Part shown: piece by piece, positions 532-33,438 of the stretch
How the letters are laid out: every line of letters begins with the position of its first letter
How positions within the stretch are numbered: the stretch's first letter is position 1
DNA from: an uncultured Acidimicrobiia bacterium
GTDB lineage: Bacteria > Actinomycetota > Acidimicrobiia > Spongiisociales > JAENVV01
DNA: 33,438 nt
Assembly: GCA_965366365.1 (NCBI GenBank)
Contig: CBDUEV010000031.1
Span: 1-33,438, forward strand
Direction of reading: 5' to 3'
Notes under the pieces: generated by a model
Database searches by the model: none
What the model was told of the DNA's origin: nothing
Seen by the model: the letters and a program-made list of their open reading frames with translations, nothing else
Made by a program: the position numbers and the translations under genes

Positions 532-2388
532 TCAGCCATCCATGGCACGGTGCAAGAACGCTGCCATCTGCCCCCGAGACACGAAATCGTCGGGGCAGAA
601 CATGGTGTTGGCGGGAGGGTTGCATCCCTTGGTGACGCCCGCCGTGCCCAACCGGTCGATGTCGTCCTCGAAGACCGAGTTGTCGTCGTCGACGAACAAG
701 TCCCCACCACCGTCATCGGAAAAGCCAAAGGCGCGGACCAGGAAGGCAGCCATCTGCCCCCTCGTGACGAGCGCGGCCGGACAGTACATGGTGTTGGCGG
801 GAGGGTTGCATCCCTTGGTGACGCCCGCCGTGCCCAACCGGTCGATGTCGTCCTCGAAGACCGAGTTGTCGTCGTCGACGAACAAGTCCCCACCACCGTC
901 ATCGGAAAAGCCAAAGGCGCGGACCAAGAAGGCAGCCATCTGCCCCCTCGTCACGAAATCGGCCGGACAGAACAGGGTGTTGGCGGGAGGATTGCAGCCC
1001 TGGGTGATGCCCTCTGCGGCAAGCCACTCGATGTCGTCCTCGAACACCGATCCATCGTCGTCGCTGAAGGTGCCGACACCGGCGGGCACGGTGGTCGTCG
1101 TGGTCGTCGTGGTCGTCGTGGTCGTCGTGGTGGTGGGCGCCGGGAGGGTGGATATGTCGAACACGTACACGGCACCCGCACTGGCGCCGTTTTCGTTCGA
1201 GTCGCCGGGTGACCCGACCGCCACGGTATATCCCGAGACTGCCACGTCGTGACCGAAGACATCGAACGCTTCGGGCGCAGGTGCCTCCAGCACCTCGCCC
1301 GGCATCCAATCCCCGCTCACGGATCGCTCATAGACGTAGGCAGCCCCGGCATATCCATCGGCGTTCGGAGCCCCCACCACGAGCAGGTCACCGTCTACGG
1401 CGACAGAAGCTCCGAAGGCCGGTGTGGCGCTGCCGCCTGGCCAGAGGGTGTCCTCGAGAGCGTAGACCGCCCCGTCCCAGCGATAGACCCACACAACGCC
1501 GGTGCCGATTCCGTTCGGGTTAATCGCCAGGGCATCACCGATGACGAGGAGGTCTTCGTCCATGGCCACACCACCGTGGTCCACGGAGATCTTCTGGATC
1601 TGGTGCCAGTCACCGAAGTTCTCGAAGACGTATACGGCGCCCTCGGCAGACACTGCCAACCTGTCGCCGTCAACGGCGACGTCCCATCCGAACTGGAGGT
1701 CGTCGCGCGGGTCTTCGGGGAAGACCCAGTCGCCGTCGACTTCGACCCGTCCCAGGAGATCAGCCCACTCTTCGCCCGGTGGGCAGCCCTCGATGTCGTC
1801 GCAGTACACGCTGGCGAAGGGGCCGCCTGCCGCCATGCTGCCGTTCAGGTCGACTGAGTCGCCAAAGAACTCGCTGCGGTAGAAGCCGTACTCCCATGCC
1901 GCGGATGCCACATCTCCATCCACCCACTCGAGCACGATCGCCACCCCCTGCATATAGAGCGACCCACCGTCGACCACCGGATGCAGCGGCGCTCCGACCA
2001 CGGTGGTCGTTCCCTCGATGGCCACGTCATTGCCGGCCATCCAGGGGGCTGTCTCGACCAGGGGGTCGTCCGTGTAGAAGTTGATCTTGTTCTTGTTGTC
2101 CCACCCCGTGGTCGTCTCACGCACGTAGGTGATCGAACCCCGGCTGTCAGCGCCGTCGTAGTCGTCGAACGGTGCACCGACGATCATGCCCGACCCGTCC
2201 AGGTCAACCGCGTATCCGAACTGGTCACCTGGCTCGCCAAAGCCGTCCAGAACGACCTCCTCGAGGCTGGCCGCATCGACCGAGCGAGCGGGAAGGAGCC
2301 CCAGCGATGCCACCACGACGGCCACCACCCCGGCTGCAACCCATCGAAGTCGTCGGTATGGAACCGGCGTCTGGTGGTGGAAACCCAT
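532..2388 (-). CDS. Secreted FG-GAP (integrin-alpha-like) repeat protein with a poly-Thr linker and three C-terminal SLH-like repeats
   Basis: AGGAGG Shine-Dalgarno precedes ATG at 2386-2388; the ORF-track GTG at 2406 is less likely. The N-terminus is signal-peptide-like (PYRRLRWVAAGVVAVVVASLG, possibly Tat). There are multiple FG..VA..GD-LLVGAP...G.AYVF motifs. A T15 linker is followed by 3 x ~62-aa repeats F.DD....F.DDI..L...G.T.GCNPPANT.YCP...VTRGQMAAFLVRA, matching the SLH pattern. Confidence 0.75.
   Translation of the reverse strand: MGFHHQTPVPYRRLRWVAAGVVAVVVASLGLLPARSVDAASLEEVVLDGFGEPGDQFGYAVDLDGSGMIVGAPFDDYDGADSRGSITYVRETTTGWDNKNKINFYTDDPLVETAPWMAGNDVAIEGTTTVVGAPLHPVVDGGSLYMQGVAIVLEWVDGDVASAAWEYGFYRSEFFGDSVDLNGSMAAGGPFASVYCDDIEGCPPGEEWADLLGRVEVDGDWVFPEDPRDDLQFGWDVAVDGDRLAVSAEGAVYVFENFGDWHQIQKISVDHGGVAMDEDLLVIGDALAINPNGIGTGVVWVYRWDGAVYALEDTLWPGGSATPAFGASVAVDGDLLVVGAPNADGYAGAAYVYERSVSGDWMPGEVLEAPAPEAFDVFGHDVAVSGYTVAVGSPGDSNENGASAGAVYVFDISTLPAPTTTTTTTTTTTTTTTVPAGVGTFSDDDGSVFEDDIEWLAAEGITQGCNPPANTLFCPADFVTRGQMAAFLVRAFGFSDDGGGDLFVDDDNSVFEDDIDRLGTAGVTKGCNPPANTMYCPAALVTRGQMAAFLVRAFGFSDDGGGDLFVDDDNSVFEDDIDRLGTAGVTKGCNPPANTMFCPDDFVSRGQMAAFLHRAMDG
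601..1100. repeat. Three tandem ~186-bp repeats (copies at 601, 787, 973). The first two are near-identical and encode the SLH-like modules.
   Basis: Direct DNA repeats with a 186-bp period were seen (catggtgttggcgggagggttgcatccc... recurs at 601 and 787, with a diverged copy at 973). The period of 62 codons keeps the reading frame. Confidence 0.85.
1091..1135. repeat. 9-bp microsatellite (gtggtcgtc) x4 plus a variant, encoding the poly-Thr linker
   Basis: Perfect 9-bp tandem copies at 1091, 1100, 1109 and 1118, and a variant at 1127. The unit length is a multiple of 3. Confidence 0.8.
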
Positions 2389-2598
2389 GGCGTCCTCCTG
2401 TCTCACGGAGGAGCGTTCAGGCTGACCGTACCGAGAGAGGGGATCCGACCCGCCGCCGGCTCCGGGCCACGATCGGCCCTTCGCCTGCCCGCATCCTCAC
2501 TGAACTCCCATACCCAGGGTGCACACAGTGAGGCGAAGCGGACTAGAGCCTTAGGTCAGAGTCGCCGGGGCCCGCCGTGCGTCGGCCCGGCCGGGTCC

Positions 2599-3954: not shown

Positions 3955-4511
3955 CAGGTCACCCGGTTCGCTTCTTTGAACTGCACCGGCACGGACCCGA
4001 CGGCGTAGTCCTTGCGGAGAGGATGACCCACCCACTCATCGGGCATGAGGATCCGAGTCATGTCGGGATGGTCATCGAAGCTGATCCCGAAAAGGTCGTA
4101 GATCTCTCGCTCGAAGAAGTTGGCTCCGGGGTAGACAGGCACGAGGGATGGACAGGTCGGGTCGTCGGCATCGACGGGGATCCGCGCTCGCAGGCGCAGG
4201 CCGTGCTGGACGGAGAGCAAATTGGCCACGACCTCGAACCGCGTTCGCTTCTTGCCCAGGTAGTCGACGGCCGTGACGTCGGCGGCCATTTCGAAACCCG
4301 CCTCGTGTGCGGCCGTCGCGAAGGCTCGCCAGGTCTCCTTGGGAACCATCACCACGTCTTGTCGAGACGAGAGCATCCACTCGACATCGCCGAAGGGCTC
4401 GATGAGGTTCTTCAGAACGTCGTGGTCAGGAAGTGCTCGTTCCGGTTCGACAGGCGATTCGGTTTGGGTCTCTTCTGTTGCAGTCTCGTCAGTCACGGGC
4501 CAGCTCCCCAC
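3954..4511 (-). CDS. nuoC: NADH-quinone oxidoreductase subunit C (30-kDa subunit)
   Basis: NuoC motifs (FEVVANLLS..., [33 protein letters not shown]). GTG start at 4511, or alternatively GTG at 4496. It overlaps the nuoB 3' end. Confidence 0.92.
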
Positions 4512-16343: not shown

Positions 16344-17372
16344 ATGAGCGATTTTCTCGCCGCCGCCGCTGCCGCCGTAGGTGGGCCGGAAGAGCTCGTC
16401 GAGCGATCGGCCCGCGCCCGCGCCGCAGCCACGGGTGCGGACTACGAAGCGATACTCCAGGCTTGGGCCGGCGGCGGTGAAGCGCCTGCCCCGTCGACAG
16501 TGTCCGGTTCAGCACCTGCCGCCGCGGAGGAGCCATCGGCGCCGGAAACGCAGCCACCAGCCGAGGCACCTTCCGAAGCTCCGGCAGAGGCGCCGGACCC
16601 GCCCGCACCGTCGGGCGTGGAAGCCGCCGCGGACGAGGGTCGGGATGCTCCCCGCGTCGTCGAGGGCCCTCCCCCACCCGCAACGGTGAGCGTCGAGGAA
16701 GCCGCCGATTGGGAGGTGGTGACCACCGTCCCGGCTGCCGGCCTCAAGGAACGAACCGCTTCGCTCATTCCTGCCTGGCTGATGGGTTTCTTCGTTCTCA
16801 TTCCGCTCTTTGCGGTCGCCTACATCGCCGTGTACTCGAACGGACCTGAGTGCGGGTCGGGCGGCCAGCTCAGGGTCGATTTCCGCAATCAACTCGTCAA
16901 CTGCGACGGATCCGCCTACGAGGGCGCGGGCGGGCCTGGCGGTGGCGGGATCAACTACGTGGCGATCGGTGCGGACGTCTACACCAATGTGGCTCAGTGC
17001 GCAGGATGTCACGGTTCCGACGGTGGCGGTGGCAGTGCCGGCCCCACCCTCTTGGGGGTCAACGGGACCTTCGGTTCCTGCGCCGACCACCAACAGTGGA
17101 TCACTCTGGGCAGCCAAGGATGGATCGACACGATCGGCCCGAACTATGGGGATGCCAACAAGCCGGCCGGGGGCTTCGGAGCCAAGATGCCCGGTTTCGC
17201 CTCACTCACAGCCGAGCAACTCGCGGCCGTGACCGTGTACGAGCGGGTGGTGTTCGGCGGAGCAGGCATCGATGAAACACTCGAGAATTGTGGCCTCGTA
17301 GAGACCGAAGAGGCACCAGATGAGGCACCGACCGATGCCGAAACGACCCCAACCACAGAGCCCGCTTCCTGA
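16344..17372 (+). CDS. Membrane-anchored monoheme class-I cytochrome c (CcoP-like C-domain) with an N-terminal helical module
   Basis: GGAGTAGG Shine-Dalgarno. The N-terminal module and a Pro/Ala/Glu linker are followed by one TM helix, a single CAGCH, and an MPGF Met ligand. Confidence 0.8.
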   Translation: MSDFLAAAAAAVGGPEELVERSARARAAATGADYEAILQAWAGGGEAPAPSTVSGSAPAAAEEPSAPETQPPAEAPSEAPAEAPDPPAPSGVEAAADEGRDAPRVVEGPPPPATVSVEEAADWEVVTTVPAAGLKERTASLIPAWLMGFFVLIPLFAVAYIAVYSNGPECGSGGQLRVDFRNQLVNCDGSAYEGAGGPGGGGINYVAIGADVYTNVAQCAGCHGSDGGGGSAGPTLLGVNGTFGSCADHQQWITLGSQGWIDTIGPNYGDANKPAGGFGAKMPGFASLTAEQLAAVTVYERVVFGGAGIDETLENCGLVETEEAPDEAPTDAETTPTTEPAS

Positions 17373-17650
17373 TTTGGCGGCCCGGGTGGGCCACCAATCG
17401 ACCCCAAAACCCCTCCCACAGCGCATATTCTCGGGAATTTCCTGTATTTGGAGTGACTAATCACAAAATGACTAAAGATTTTGGTCACCACTTCCGATAC
17501 TATGCAGGTGCGGCTTCCCGCCTCAGGGCAGGGAGTCGCTGAAGACAACTGAGGTCGCCACGTTTATGCCTTGGGCACGTTCAGTGACCAAAGGTGTATC
17601 GGAAGCCTCCCAGCCCGCCCCGATGGCGGCTCTCAGTTGGATTCGAGGAA

Positions 17651-17680
17651 GGGCGAGGCTTCGGCCTCGCCCTTCTGTTT
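17651..17680 (+). terminator. Rho-independent terminator (GGGCGAGGC-TTCG-GCCTCGCCC followed by TTCTGTTT)
   Basis: Perfect 9-bp GC-rich stem, tetraloop and T-rich tail, seen directly. Confidence 0.6.
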
Positions 17681-17744
17681 GCCCAGCGCCTCGGTAGCCC
17701 GGCGCCTCGGTAGCCCAGCGCCCCGGTGGCCCAGCGCCTCGATT
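17681..17744. repeat. 4 x 16-bp tandem repeat (GCCCAGCGCCTCGGTA and variants)
   Basis: Direct reading gives units at 17681, 17697, 17713 and 17729. Confidence 0.8.
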
Positions 17745-17785
17745 GGACCGCTTCCGTCCAGCTCCGATGACTAACGTGACCCTCC

Positions 17786-18601
17786 ATGCCGGGAGTCATC
17801 AGCTTTCTGTCCGATTTCGGCCACGGAGACGAATTCGTGGGGGTGGTTCACGGCGTCATCGCCAAAGTGGCTCCTGATGTGCGAGTCATCGACGTGAACC
17901 ACGGAGTCGACCGAGGATCGATCCGCGCTGGAGCTCTGTCCCTCCTGCGAGCAATCCAATACCTCCCGGAAGGGGTCGCCCTAGCCGTGGTGGACCCGGG
18001 CGTCGGCACTGCGCGCGCTGCGATCGCCGTCCAGACCTCGTGGGGCTTCTTCGTGGGCCCAGACAACGGCCTCCTCTCGCCGGCGGTCGCCATGGTGGGC
18101 GGCGCCCACCGCGTGCACGCCATCGAGAATCCCGAGCTGATCATTCCGAGCCAGGGAGCCACGTTCGACGGACGGGATCGGTTCGCGCCCGCCGCCGCGG
18201 TGCTCGCCGACGGGCAGGCCGGCATCGAGGACATGGGACCGACCCTCGACCCCAACGAGTTGGTCCCCACCCTGCTGCCGCTGCCTGACGTCGACGGAGA
18301 TCATGTCCGAGGGGCAGCTTGGTGGATCGACCATTTCGGGAACGTGCAGACCAACGTCGCTCCCGCAGACCTCGCCGGGCTCGGAGCGGACGTCGGCTCC
18401 AACCTGGCTGTGCAGCTCGGGGCGGCGAGTCACGATCTCCCCTACGTGCGGGCGTACGGCGACGTGGCGTCCGGCGAGCCCATGGTCCTGATCGACTCCC
18501 AGGGCCTCGCAGCCATTTGCGTTCGCGATGGCAGGGCAGACGAGACGTTCGGCCTTGACGTGGACCGGCCCGTGACGTTCCGCTATCCGCCGGCCAGCTG
18601 A
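17786..18601 (+). CDS. SAM hydroxide adenosyltransferase (DUF62; fluorinase/chlorinase superfamily)
   Basis: N-terminal ISFLSDFG.GDEFVG..HGVI, VVDPGVGT and GPDNGLL motifs of the family. Confidence 0.8.
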   Translation: MPGVISFLSDFGHGDEFVGVVHGVIAKVAPDVRVIDVNHGVDRGSIRAGALSLLRAIQYLPEGVALAVVDPGVGTARAAIAVQTSWGFFVGPDNGLLSPAVAMVGGAHRVHAIENPELIIPSQGATFDGRDRFAPAAAVLADGQAGIEDMGPTLDPNELVPTLLPLPDVDGDHVRGAAWWIDHFGNVQTNVAPADLAGLGADVGSNLAVQLGAASHDLPYVRAYGDVASGEPMVLIDSQGLAAICVRDGRADETFGLDVDRPVTFRYPPAS

Positions 18602-18767: not shown

Positions 18768-19658
18768 ATGACCGCCACTGACCACGAGCACCTCGCCACG
18801 AAGCTGGCCCGTCAGGGGGGCGTGGTCATGTTGGCCGGCTCGCACGACACGGGGAAGACGACGCTCGCCCGCCAAGTGCTCGCCGCCGCCCTGGCCGAGG
18901 GCAAGACCGCCGCCTACGTAGACGCCGATGTGGCCCAATCCACGGTGGGGCCACCCACCTGCGTCGGCCTGCGTTGGGTTCGTGGCCGTGCGGATCTCGA
19001 CGATTTGAGTCGCGCCGATGAGCTTCGTTTCGTCGGTTCGACGAATCCTTCCCGGCTGGTTCTGCAGATGGTGATCGCCTCGGCCACCCTGGTCGACGTG
19101 GCCCGGCCCGAGGTCGACCTCGTCGTGATCGACACCACGGGATCGATCTCGGGTGTGACAGGCCAGACTCTGAAATACCACAAGGTGGAGCTGACCCGCC
19201 CCGACACGGTCGTGGCCCTGCAGCGGGGCGCGGAGATGGAGCCCATCATCGGCATGCTCCGCCGGTTCTTCTCGATCGAGGTTCTGACCGCGGCGGTTCA
19301 CCCGGATCTGGTCCCGGCGTCGGCCGATATCCGGTCCGCGACTCGGATCGAGAAGATTGCCCGCGCCTTGGCTCCGCCGCTGGAGGCGTGGCGAGTGAGG
19401 CCGACGGTCTTCGCTCCAACCCTCCCCGCCGGCCTCGACCTCCGACGGCTCCAAGACATGCTGGTTGGCATCCAGGACGGGTTTGGTCGCTGCCTGGGAC
19501 TTGGGGTGCTCACGTATGAAGAGGACGTCCTGCGGGTGCTCACCAACGTCGGTGAGGGCATGCAGGGACTCCGCCTCGGGTCGACGAGGGTCGACCCAAC
19601 CACCTTCACCACCAGCCCGGTCAACCTGCGCGAGGTGATGTTCGGGATCGAGACCTGA
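18768..19658 (+). CDS. Clp1/polynucleotide-kinase-like P-loop NTPase
   Basis: Walker A GSHDTGKTT followed by YVDADVAQSTVGPP (Clp1-type DxDxGQ-like); Walker B-like VVIDTTG. Confidence 0.55.
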   Translation: MTATDHEHLATKLARQGGVVMLAGSHDTGKTTLARQVLAAALAEGKTAAYVDADVAQSTVGPPTCVGLRWVRGRADLDDLSRADELRFVGSTNPSRLVLQMVIASATLVDVARPEVDLVVIDTTGSISGVTGQTLKYHKVELTRPDTVVALQRGAEMEPIIGMLRRFFSIEVLTAAVHPDLVPASADIRSATRIEKIARALAPPLEAWRVRPTVFAPTLPAGLDLRRLQDMLVGIQDGFGRCLGLGVLTYEEDVLRVLTNVGEGMQGLRLGSTRVDPTTFTTSPVNLREVMFGIET

Positions 19659-19693
19659 TCAAGAGCTGATCGTGAAAACCCGATACCTGAAGG

Positions 19694-20296
19694 ATGGCGC
19701 GCCTCGACAACCTCATCCTCAGCGTCGCCTTGGTTCTCGTCGGATTCAGCACCGCGTCGGCATCCTACGAGGTGTCGGCAACCGGCCCGCCTCAGGGAGT
19801 GCCCTCTGAGTTCGCGCTCCCCTCCGTCGCAGCGCCCGACGCCAACCTCGTTCAACTTGACGACGTGGAAGAGGAGTTCCTGAGCCTTCTCAACGTCGAG
19901 CGAGCCGCCGTGGGGCTCCCCGCTCTGAGCAGGTATTTCGACCTCGAGGACGACGCAGCCGCCCACACGGCCGCGATGATCGAAACGGGGGACATCTACC
20001 ACTCCGCCGACCTGACCCTGGTCACGACCGGTTGGGAGGCCCTCGGCGAGAACGTCGGCTACGGACCCACGGTCGACAAGCTGCATACCGCCTTCATGAA
20101 TTCACCGCACCACCGCGACAACGTCGTCGGCGAGTACGACCGTGTCGGGATCAGCGCGGACCGCAACCCGTCCGGCGTGATCTTCGTCACGTTCATCTTC
20201 ATGAGGACGGCCGTCCCATCACCCGTCACACTGATTCCGGAGACCGCAGGGCCGGCCGCCGGGATCGCCGGGGCTCTCTGGCTGGGAGAGCAATAG
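19694..20296 (+). CDS. Secreted CAP/SCP/PR-1-like domain protein
   Basis: Signal peptide (LILSVALVLVGFSTASA), LN.ER...GLP.L, GENVGYG and HHRDNVVG.Y..VG motifs. Confidence 0.6.
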   Translation: MARLDNLILSVALVLVGFSTASASYEVSATGPPQGVPSEFALPSVAAPDANLVQLDDVEEEFLSLLNVERAAVGLPALSRYFDLEDDAAAHTAAMIETGDIYHSADLTLVTTGWEALGENVGYGPTVDKLHTAFMNSPHHRDNVVGEYDRVGISADRNPSGVIFVTFIFMRTAVPSPVTLIPETAGPAAGIAGALWLGEQ

Positions 20297-20308: not shown

Positions 20309-20809
20309 TCACACCCTCCGGGTCATCACCGCCACCCGTCCAGTCGAGAGGATCTTCCTGCCTTTCTGGACGGCATCATGCGGCCCGCGCACATCGAGGC
20401 CCGATGCCTGCCAACGGGCGGCCACCTCTTCGAGTGGTTCGTCGGTCTCGAAGGCCACACCGGCCAGTGCGTCGCGCGGGGCGTCGATGACCTCGACGAG
20501 CAGTCCGGCGAGGACGAAGCCGGCACGTTGCCCGCGGCGCGTCTCTCCGATGCGGCGGACGTCTCCTCCTGCCTCGGCGAGTAGATCGAGCGTTCCTTCG
20601 AAGTTCGAGGCAGTGATGGCGACGTGGTCCACCCCCCACCCCGGAACCTCGACGGCGTCGGTCGGAACGTCGACCACCGTCACGGCGAGGGCGGGTTGCC
20701 GTCCCTCCCATCTCCAACCGGCCGGTCCGTCGATGATGGTCACGTTGTCGAGCCGCGCCACGGACGGGAATCCGAGCCGGTCGAGGGGAAACGAGAGCAC
20801 CGTGATCAC
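20309..20809 (-). CDS. Glyoxalase/bleomycin-resistance/dioxygenase (VOC) family protein (tentative)
   Basis: VDHVAI... pattern and size fit VOC-fold proteins, but motif support is weak. Confidence 0.4.
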   Translation of the reverse strand: MITVLSFPLDRLGFPSVARLDNVTIIDGPAGWRWEGRQPALAVTVVDVPTDAVEVPGWGVDHVAITASNFEGTLDLLAEAGGDVRRIGETRRGQRAGFVLAGLLVEVIDAPRDALAGVAFETDEPLEEVAARWQASGLDVRGPHDAVQKGRKILSTGRVAVMTRRV

Positions 20810-20876
20810 CCGCTCAGGCTACCCGCCCAACCGGACCCTCCCTCTCGCAGAAGGCGGCCGAGAATCGCGGCTCCCA

Positions 20877-21020
20877 GCGCAGAACGCCTACGGCGTTCTG
20901 CAACGCGTCCCCGACGCCCTACGTCCGGGAAATCGCGCCTCACAGCGCAGAACGCCGAAGGCGTCCTGCAACGCGTCCCCGACGCTCTGCGTCGGGGACG
21001 CGCAGCGTCGGGGACGCGCA
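20877..21020. repeat. Two tandem copies (~67-bp period) of a REP-like GC-rich palindromic element
   Basis: Unit: GCGCAGAACGCC-N3-GGCGTYCTGCAACGCGTCCCCGACGC.CT.CGTC.GGGA. Copy 2 contains a perfect 13-bp hairpin GCGTCCCCGACGC-TCT-GCGTCGGGGACGC plus an extra half-site. Confidence 0.7.
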
Positions 21021-33284: not shown

Positions 33285-33396
33285 GCTGTCCGGCCCAATC
33301 GCTGTCCGGCCCAGTTGCTGTCCGGCCCAGTTGCTGTCCGGCCCAGTTGCTGTCCGGCCCAGTTGCTGACCGGCCCAGTTGCTGACCGGCCCAGTT
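33285..33396. repeat. 7 x 16-bp tandem repeat (GCTGTCCGGCCCAGTT; last copies GCTGACCGGCCCAGTT), continuing toward the window end
   Basis: Direct reading of the sequence. The ORFs spanning it (33174..33422 minus, 33213..33401 plus) merely translate the repeat. Confidence 0.85.
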
Positions 33397-33438
33397 GCTG
33401 ACGTGCCGGCGTGGCGTCGCATCGGCGGTGCGCCCGCG

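Follow-up and report, generated by a model that had tools for sequence, protein, structure and literature searches.

A gap of 413 bp at positions 17373-17785 of contig CBDUEV010000031.1, from an uncultured Acidimicrobiia bacterium, very probably holds an independent gene for a structured RNA, read from the + strand between about 17507 and 17681. The whole stretch of 33,438 nt that was analysed is referred to here as the window. The gap is bordered by a cytochrome c gene (16344-17372), the final gene of a cbb3-type oxidase cluster, and by a SAM_HAT/DUF62 gene (17786-18601, +). The predicted RNA is a member of a family that is spread over the class Acidimicrobiia; no matching description was found, and the family is apparently undescribed. 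In its full form the account describes an independent small RNA (sRNA) gene with a promoter of the WhiG/sigma-28 type, whose product acts in trans through a C-rich bulge, and the chances of this account as a whole are about even.

The conservation of the element was followed in 80 loci around SAM_HAT homologues, taken from Acidimicrobiia species-representative genomes. The 413 bp matched 51 of the 80 loci (blastn and nhmmer). The conserved stretch corresponds to about 17452-17680 of the window and excludes the tandem repeats and the sequence before 17450. An exact 18-mer, AGCCTCCCAGCCCGCCCC (17604-17621), occurs once per locus in 51/51 GTDB homologues, and GGGCACGTTC (17573-17582) is near-invariant, with one deviating sequence per position. 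A second sample was obtained by scanning metagenome contigs with the 18-mer alone, which avoids the bias of a selection based on SAM_HAT, and homologues are also present in more than 90 of these contigs. The window is part of a metagenome-assembled genome; its SAM_HAT protein was also found on ENA and Logan contigs, and the relatives of this protein carry the annotation Acidimicrobiia. Nine further contigs of the same metagenome population as the window carry the identical 413 bp and add no independent information. Promoter, structured body and terminator are kept as one unit in more than 140 sequences. An earlier interpretation made from the letters alone (the sequence-only reading) had offered an independent sRNA as one of several possible architectures, and the conservation of this unit speaks in favour of that option.

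The single-sequence folds of every homologue share one plan: an optional 5' hairpin, helices P1 and P2, a P3 hairpin and an unpaired strand on the 3' side. The return strands of P2 and P1 come after this 18-mer strand and are followed by a GC-rich hairpin. The sequences of P1 and P2 are wholly different between lineages, with the pairing retained. MAFFT combined with RNAalifold on 40 sequences recovered P3 only; P1 and P2 are too diverged for sequence alignment, so a hand-seeded covariance model was needed, and it was built from 15 majority-clade sequences and a hand-drawn structure. The model has a single match in the window (17538-17646, +) and one in each of the 51 loci, and it finds none in the remaining 29 of the 80. 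In these sequences (type A), 90.9% of the cells are paired, against 72% when shuffled and about 43% with a slid partner. Both sides have changed in 31 of the 32 pairs, with 246 compensatory cells versus 62 in the shuffles. Frequent G-U pairs identify the + strand of the window as the RNA strand. The predicted fold of 17507-17681 has an energy of -95.7 kcal/mol (z = -5.1), and the 18-mer lies in its exposed part, with a mean unpaired probability of 0.62 (0.85 for CUCCCA) against 0.33 for the whole RNA. Across the family the bulge measures 21-26 nt on the 3' side and 0-2 nt on the 5' side. A pseudoknot between the P3 loop (CGUUC) and GAACG of the bulge was considered and rejected, since the partner varies without compensation (GAUCG, UAUCG, UAAGG) and type B, described next, lacks the loop.

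About 40 of 120 metagenome contigs present the 18-mer in a different setting, named type B, and most of them have a higher GC content (about 0.7-0.8). In type B the rods measure 22-42 bp, the apical hairpin varies, and the 18-mer together with AAG bulges out on the 3' side. On the type-A model, 93.6% of the type-B cells are paired compared with 54% when shuffled, and 32/32 pairs have compensatory changes; the slid-partner control of the pairing tests gives about 40% paired. The type-B SAM_HAT proteins are likewise annotated as Acidimicrobiia. Many type-B sequences carry a WhiG-type promoter 20-30 nt 5' of P1.

The promoter of the RNA gene is likely of the sigma-28 type, judging from its sequence and spacing. 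The published consensus for WhiG/sigma-28 comprises a -35 element T(A/C)AA, a spacer of 16 nt and a -10 element GCCGATAA, in which the central CGA is essential (PMC12871210, PMC8325347). The promoters of the WhiG/RsiG regulon described there resemble the one of the RNA in all three elements. The window reads TAAA-N16-TCCGATAC, followed by about 7 nt to the predicted start, and all homologues have (C)T(C/A)AAG, a 16-nt spacer and (G/A)(C/T)CGATAA upstream. Of 88 distinct type-A sequences, 86 have a match to this promoter within 200 nt upstream, compared with 2% of random windows of 200 nt. A scan with the sigma-70 consensus returned 0 promoters. The sequence-only reading had pointed to a TACTAT box, which lies at 17498-17503 and overlaps the -10 element; the position of its promoter was about right, and the predicted type is sigma-28/WhiG instead of sigma-70. 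RsiG, the anti-sigma factor of WhiG, has been reported in Acidimicrobiales (PMC8325347), and expression of the RNA would depend on WhiG. The published searches for WhiG promoters demanded a start codon at most 200 bp downstream and mention no RNA target (PMC12871210, PMC8325347); an sRNA gene would therefore have gone unreported.

The hairpin of the intrinsic terminator has an energy of -27.4 kcal/mol (z = -4.7). A hairpin of -24 to -34 kcal/mol stands directly after P1 in 47 of 50 homologues, which assigns the terminator to the RNA and not to the cbb3 operon, although the sequence-only reading had allowed that it might serve the cytochrome c operon alone. Thirty-five of the 50 combine a hairpin of -15 kcal/mol or lower with at least 3 U in the following 8 nt. 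The hairpin escaped a simple terminator scan on account of its short U tract (3-4 U).

The genomic linkage was assessed on family members found through the 18-mer with at least 1.2 kb on both sides. A SAM_HAT gene lies within 1.5 kb of the RNA in 18/18 type-A and 11/11 type-B unbiased contigs (29/29), and the RNA is usually at its 3' side. In type A the RNA is convergent with SAM_HAT in 16 of the 18 unbiased contigs and divergent in the other two and in locus L014; in type B it is convergent in 6/11 and downstream on the same strand in 5/11. The window is the only case with the RNA upstream of SAM_HAT on the same strand. Since the orientation of the RNA to SAM_HAT varies, a 5' riboswitch or attenuator is ruled out for the family, and with it two of the architectures proposed by the sequence-only reading. 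Its further hint, that the downstream gene uses S-adenosylmethionine (SAM), has an unforeseen counterpart in the constant position of the RNA gene beside a SAM_HAT gene; no SAM riboswitch model matches.

The usual order in type A is cbb3 oxidase, a small CxxC glutaredoxin-like gene, the RNA, SAM_HAT, a Clp1-like P-loop kinase gene and a CAP-domain gene, after which the order ends with ybjN-like and mshA-like genes. The glutaredoxin-like gene is divergent from the RNA and SAM_HAT is convergent. The RNA unit, with or without the glutaredoxin-like gene, occurs in both orientations and flips relative to both SAM_HAT and the cbb3 operon. No glutaredoxin-like gene is present in the window, L011 or L014. 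Only type A has cytochrome c, Clp1-like and glutaredoxin-like genes as companions. Some further observations concern these neighbours. The usual layout has SAM_HAT converging with the RNA and diverging from the Clp1-like gene; with respect to this layout, SAM_HAT is inverted in the window. The Clp1-like P-loop protein of the window (18768-19658; Pfam CLP1_P, related to eukaryotic and archaeal RNA 5'-kinases) is encoded between SAM_HAT and the CAP gene. In L021 (4148-4369, +) and its equivalents the glutaredoxin-like gene starts about 15-20 nt past the -35 element of the RNA on the opposite strand, so that both promoters must overlap back to back. The SAM_HAT motif GPDNG[LV]L(S/A)PAVA, compared over L011-L090, is mostly LLSPAVA beside the RNA and mostly LLAPAVA where there is no RNA within 3 kb, a split that suggests two SAM_HAT lineages.

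The RNA gene seems to be derived from a CAP gene, as indicated by the occurrence of its second form inside CAP open reading frames (ORF) and by the same promoter type on CAP genes. In subgroup B1 of type B (L092, L096, L125, L132, L173, L186, L198 and others) an ORF with a Pfam CAP domain encloses the fold. In L096 this ORF spans 1035-1748 (+), the CAP domain covers residues 59-159 and the 18-mer begins at codon 168. The 5' strands of P1, P2 and P3 of B1 encode the CAP C-terminal motif DPGF..GVGV..G..Y.V.EVF, the 18-mer encodes ASQPAP, and the WhiG-type promoter is found where the CAP gene begins, some 525 nt upstream. In free-standing type-B RNAs the peptide DPGFRSVGVG is still readable in the CAP frame. 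The alignment between types A and B1 covers the surroundings of P3 and of the bulge and extends beyond the 18-mer itself. A WhiG-type promoter ends 6-8 nt before the CAP ATG in 29 of the 39 loci with a CAP homologue; with this distance the CAP mRNAs are probably leaderless. The origin could most simply be pictured in two steps: the RNA fold would have originated in, or been taken up by, the 3' portion of a CAP gene driven by WhiG, and the ORF would have been lost later in most lineages, where promoter, fold and terminator remain.

Beside these main observations, L182 also has the RNA fold and the 18-mer within an intact CAP-domain ORF, and both it and the B1 contigs contain a second strong hairpin after the fold, likewise within the ORF. 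The promoter spacer of other clades has a different inverted repeat, CCAC-N5-GTGG, common to the RNA and CAP promoters. The form ACCAC-TCTCC-GTGGT occurs in the 16-nt spacer of the L021 RNA promoter (about 4100-4125, -) and of the CAP promoters of L023, L087 and L068, the last of which has the loop of the repeat in inverted form. From its sequence, this repeat may be a shared operator or a trace of the common descent of both promoters.

Table 1. Coordinates of the RNA gene, its predicted structural parts and the surrounding sequence elements in the window.
Feature	Position	Strand	Remarks
Predicted small-RNA transcript, ~175 nt	~17507-17681	+	5' end deduced from promoter geometry
-35 element TAAA, extended form CTAAAG	17473-17476	+	WhiG/FliA (sigma-28 family) type; aligns with the invariant (C)TCAAG of homologues
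-10 element TCCGATAC	17493-17500	+	6/8 matches to GCCGATAA, central CGA kept
Lineage-specific 5' hairpin	17510-17539	+	Absent from the majority clade; other lineages have different 5' hairpins
P1, 5' strand	17540-17554	+	Pairs with 17631-17645; 14/14 P1 pairs with compensatory changes
P2, 5' strand	17555-17561	+	Pairs with 17623-17629; 96% of cells paired, 52 sequences
P3 hairpin, stem 17565-17575/17588-17598	17565-17598	+	Includes GGGCACGTTC at 17573-17582
Single-stranded 3'-side bulge, 24 nt	17599-17622	+	Carries the invariant AGCCUCCCAGCCCGCCCC, 17604-17621
P2 and P1, 3' strands	17623-17645	+	Mapped by model alignment
Intrinsic terminator	17647-17681	+	13-bp GC-rich hairpin 17647-17659/17664-17676, UUCG loop, then GUUUG
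SAM_HAT/DUF62 gene	17786-18601	+	Pfam SAM_HAT_N and SAM_HAT_C; the one constant neighbour of the RNA
Second WhiG-type promoter, TCAAG...CCCGATAC	19659-19686	+	Ends 7 nt 5' of the ATG of the CAP-domain gene (19694-20296)
Palindrome GTGACTAATCAC, first TGACTAA copy	17453-17464		Upstream of the promoter; direct reading
Inverted repeat TGAC-N11-GTCA, TGACTAAAGATTTTGGTCAC, second TGACTAA copy	17469-17488		Covers the -35 element and the spacer
Third TGACTAA copy	17768-17774	+	12 nt 5' of the SAM_HAT ATG
Tandem repeat, unit GCCCAGCGCCTCGGTA, 16 nt x 3.8 copies, 88% matches	17681-17741		Outside the RNA family

The searches found no counterpart of the RNA family among described RNAs. At the gathering score Rfam 15 has 0 matches, both for the whole window and for 9 + 16 related loci, and in E-value mode the window and the type-A and type-B loci give terminator-like noise only, at 21 bits or less. 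The comparison with SAM-I, SAM-IV and other Rfam models that the sequence-only reading had advised matched no family. A tRNA/tmRNA scan detected none, a literature search for the 16-mer returned no relevant paper, and a text search on RNA motifs of Acidimicrobiia gave nothing pertinent. Three other identities were tried and rejected. The viral collection contains just 2 matches to the 18-mer, both unrelated, which disfavours a mobile or phage origin. An ORF running through the RNA on the opposite strand in L021 was discarded, as the third positions of the conserved blocks do not wobble and the indel lengths do not keep to multiples of three. A small ORF 3' of the terminator in L021 was also dismissed, the other loci having no space for it.

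With regard to function, the rod formed by P1, P2 and P3 is free in sequence while its pairing is kept. The free helices, the invariant exposed strand, the lack of a conserved downstream gene and the possession of its own promoter and terminator point to an RNA that probably acts in trans through the exposed C-rich strand. The RNA would be made while the WhiG regulon is on. Its C-rich strand, which contains CCUCC (an anti-Shine-Dalgarno sequence), would act in trans by pairing with the G-rich ribosome-binding regions of mRNAs, with altered translation or stability as the outcome. The pairing of C-rich strands with ribosome-binding regions is the best-precedented mode in Gram-positives that lack Hfq. 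Base pairing is proposed here by analogy and tentatively, at a strength somewhat short of even chances.

A close resemblance is to the 6C RNA of Actinobacteria, a small and independently transcribed RNA of high-GC Gram-positives in which an exposed C-rich sequence is also the most conserved part (RF01066; Mai et al. 2019, PMC6486639). The C-rich sequence of 6C is thought to pair with G-rich sites of mRNAs without a chaperone (PMC6486639). However, where 6C has two hairpins with C-rich loops, the RNA described here is one long rod that bulges on one side by 21-26 nt; the promoter type, the taxon and the gene neighbourhood are also unlike. The 6C model (RF01066) gives no match to the RNA even at E up to 10.

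A second C-rich precedent is provided by RsaE/RoxS of Firmicutes, whose C-rich motifs block Shine-Dalgarno sequences and which is tied to respiration and redox metabolism. The likeness lies in the C-rich strand and in the position of the type-A RNA next to the cbb3 oxidase cluster. On the other hand, there is no similarity in sequence or structure, RsaE/RoxS is under ResD/Rex control, and it has several short C-rich motifs in place of one 18-nt block. For the promoter class, the sRNAs that depend on sigma-28 (FliA) offer a parallel: MotR, FliX, UhpU and FlgO in E. coli (PMC10578931) and one in Campylobacter (PMC11187230). They share the flagellar-type sigma-factor promoter class with the RNA, and several come from parts of protein-coding transcripts. 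They differ in being of unrelated sequence, dependent on Hfq, derived from untranslated regions and active in flagellar regulons. For the RNA of Acidimicrobiia the actinobacterial WhiG would take the place of FliA as sigma factor, and its vicinity contains no motility genes; the WhiG regulons of actinobacteria vary and include pili, cyclic di-GMP (c-di-GMP) enzymes and sporulation.

Several points weigh against the account of a WhiG-dependent sRNA that pairs with mRNAs. The -10 element of the window deviates from the consensus at two of 8 positions, and the transcription start and the transcript ends are deduced from sequence features alone. The covariation was counted on alignments that had been fitted to the covariance model. 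Since the metagenome contigs were selected by the 18-mer, its invariance among them is a consequence of that selection. The 5' region of SAM_HAT has no excess complementarity to the RNA (mean -20.6 kcal/mol against a background of -24.1). Within the SAM_HAT mRNA the minimum is found at the GPDNGLL codons, but the synonymous sites vary freely there, and no target was found along this mRNA. The complementarity of the CAP mRNAs equals the background, and 1.1 Mb of gene neighbourhoods contain 8 scattered near-matches to the C-rich strand and no target. A 9-nt match at window position 20280 is probably due to chance, because neither the CAP mRNAs nor the gene neighbourhoods show excess complementarity. 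The invariance over 18 nt exceeds what a seed usually needs and would be just as fitting for a protein partner or a ligand pocket. Finally, a general trans-acting regulator leaves the strict adjacency to SAM_HAT unexplained.

Together with the invariance of the 18 nt, the adjacency speaks for an alternative in which the RNA works through a protein. In this case the rigid rod would offer its invariant bulge as a platform for binding a protein and not as a strand for mRNA pairing, and the obvious candidate is the SAM_HAT/DUF62 product, with the RNA as its cofactor, regulator or substrate. This alternative is rather unlikely. A SAM_HAT gene is within 1.5 kb in every contig of the unbiased set and all other neighbours differ between types A and B. 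The 18 nt have stayed invariant though every helix has turned over, and the apical hairpin of type B is variable, which leaves the bulge alone as the conserved recognition feature. The failure of the searches of the gene neighbourhoods to detect an mRNA target is also in line with it. However, the linkage could reflect old synteny, as mshA, ybjN and proC are nearby too, no RNA-binding domain was detected in the SAM_HAT protein, and the DUF62 activities reported in published work act on free SAM. Another possibility of the same kind, suggested by analogy, is that the RNA sequesters a global factor as 6S, Ms1 or CsrB do. The 6S and Ms1 RNAs are rod-like as well, with 140-200 nt (6S) or about 300 nt (Ms1) and a large unpaired region; they are conserved at a housekeeping level and bind a protein, the RNA polymerase. 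In 6S the central bubble is two-sided and the termini are paired, where the fold described here has a bulge in one strand and a separate terminator hairpin; neither a 6S model nor any other of Rfam matches this fold. The narrower combination in which the RNA is a dedicated partner of DUF62/SAM_HAT (as cofactor, regulator or substrate) and its gene was born from a protein-coding gene is somewhat less probable again.

The association with an enzyme that uses SAM also raises the question of a ligand sensor. A metabolite such as SAM, adenosine or c-di-GMP would bind in a pocket made of the bulge and the P3 loop and so tune termination and read-through into the neighbour, antisense to SAM_HAT in most genomes and sense in the window. 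Variable, covarying helices with invariant unpaired nucleotides are the typical pattern of an aptamer, the terminator stands directly 3' of P1, and the constant neighbour is the gene of a SAM-using enzyme. Nevertheless, the sequence reached beyond the terminator is inconsistent (antisense to SAM_HAT in 16/18 type-A contigs, antisense to cytochrome c elsewhere, sense to SAM_HAT in the window only), no conserved alternative pairing between aptamer and terminator is seen, the P3 loop is not conserved in type B, and no known riboswitch model matches. A ligand sensor is improbable.

Less probable still, and contradicted by the comparison across relatives, is a cis-acting leader that would control the SAM_HAT gene behind it as a SAM riboswitch or attenuator. 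In the window alone, promoter, structured RNA, terminator, 105 nt and SAM_HAT follow each other on the same strand, which is the arrangement expected of such a leader. The SAM riboswitches (SAM-I, SAM-II, SAM-IV, SAM-V, SAM-VI and SAM/SAH) resemble the RNA in their association with SAM-related genes and in an upstream position that is met in the window only; they differ in that no model of these classes or of any other family matches, in that there is no gene which the RNA consistently precedes, and in that the RNA has its own promoter and terminator. The gene order is unique to the lineage of the window, and in its relatives the RNA is convergent with, divergent from or downstream of SAM_HAT. 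The least probable explanation, with hardly any weight, is a decaying remnant of a CAP gene without RNA function whose hairpin merely terminates the upstream cbb3 operon: the area of P3 and the bulge does align with the 3' end of CAP-domain ORFs and the hairpin lies 275 nt past the stop codon of cytochrome c, but more than 50 species have kept the promoter, the terminator, the invariant 18-mer and 31/32 compensated pairs, which a pseudogene would not do, and the unit keeps its hairpin wherever it is located, even where there is no upstream operon.

Apart from the RNA gene itself, the gap contains elements that are specific to the lineage. The sequence-only reading had described two imperfect palindromes sharing TGACTAA (at 17449-17460 and 17468-17487), a third copy before the ATG (17766-17772), a hairpin terminator (17651-17680) and four copies of a 16-bp tandem repeat. 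All of these are present (Table 1), with its coordinates off by 1-4 nt overall and with 3.8 copies of the repeat. The search for TGACTAA that it advised returned exactly 3 copies in the 33.4-kb window (17454, 17469 and 17768), all within the gap, against 0.55 expected; 3 copies were reached by 1 of 100 shuffles. The second copy overlaps the -35 element. The metagenome contig L159, a close relative, keeps GTGACTA-N9-ATGACTAAAGGTATTGGTCAC at the equivalent position around the promoter, and the TGACTAA/GTGAC promoter elements are absent from the lineages other than those of the window and L159. These elements may represent a lineage-specific operator over the -35 element. The TAACGT at 17773-17778 could serve as a -10 element for a leaderless SAM_HAT mRNA.

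None of the relatives compared has a counterpart of the 16-nt tandem repeat. It shows no excess structure (17681-17741, z = +1.0) and sits at the junction made by the inversion of SAM_HAT in the lineage of the window. A hairpin at 17375-17400, just 3' of the cytochrome c stop codon, is not significant (z = -0.8). In the sequence of the window only, two perfect complementarities of 9 bp (17480-88 with 17584-92) and 10 bp (17491-17500 with 17596-17605) join the promoter spacer and the -10 element to the 3' half of P3; being ordered A B ... A' B', they cannot both form nested helices. Further tandem repeats of the window are one of 16 nt x 7.2 at its end (33285-33400), two in the gap between the ORF 20309-20809 and the ybjN-like gene (16 nt x 2.5 at 20981-21020; 68 nt x 2.0 at 20863-20998) and one of 186 nt x 2.7 (553-1050) within the ORF 532-2406 (-).

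Acidimicrobiia are abundant in soils and waters, yet RNA regulators of this class seem not to have been described so far. The searches of Rfam and the literature gave no described RNA regulator of Acidimicrobiia that matches the RNA. What is already known is the kind of molecule, a small RNA with an exposed C-rich strand; the new features are the family itself, its promoter class in the phylum, the obligatory neighbour and the apparent descent from a protein-coding gene. With the covariance model and the 18-mer, members of the family can be detected easily. If the account is correct, a class-wide structured RNA would join the short list of deeply conserved bacterial RNAs without an assigned function, and it would be the first RNA member of the c-di-GMP-controlled WhiG regulon of Actinomycetota. 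The strict linkage to SAM_HAT/DUF62 offers a route into an enzyme family whose physiological role remains debated. The series formed by the fold inside CAP ORFs, the fold fused to the promoter and the fully diverged RNA would represent a rare, still readable trace of how an RNA gene originates.

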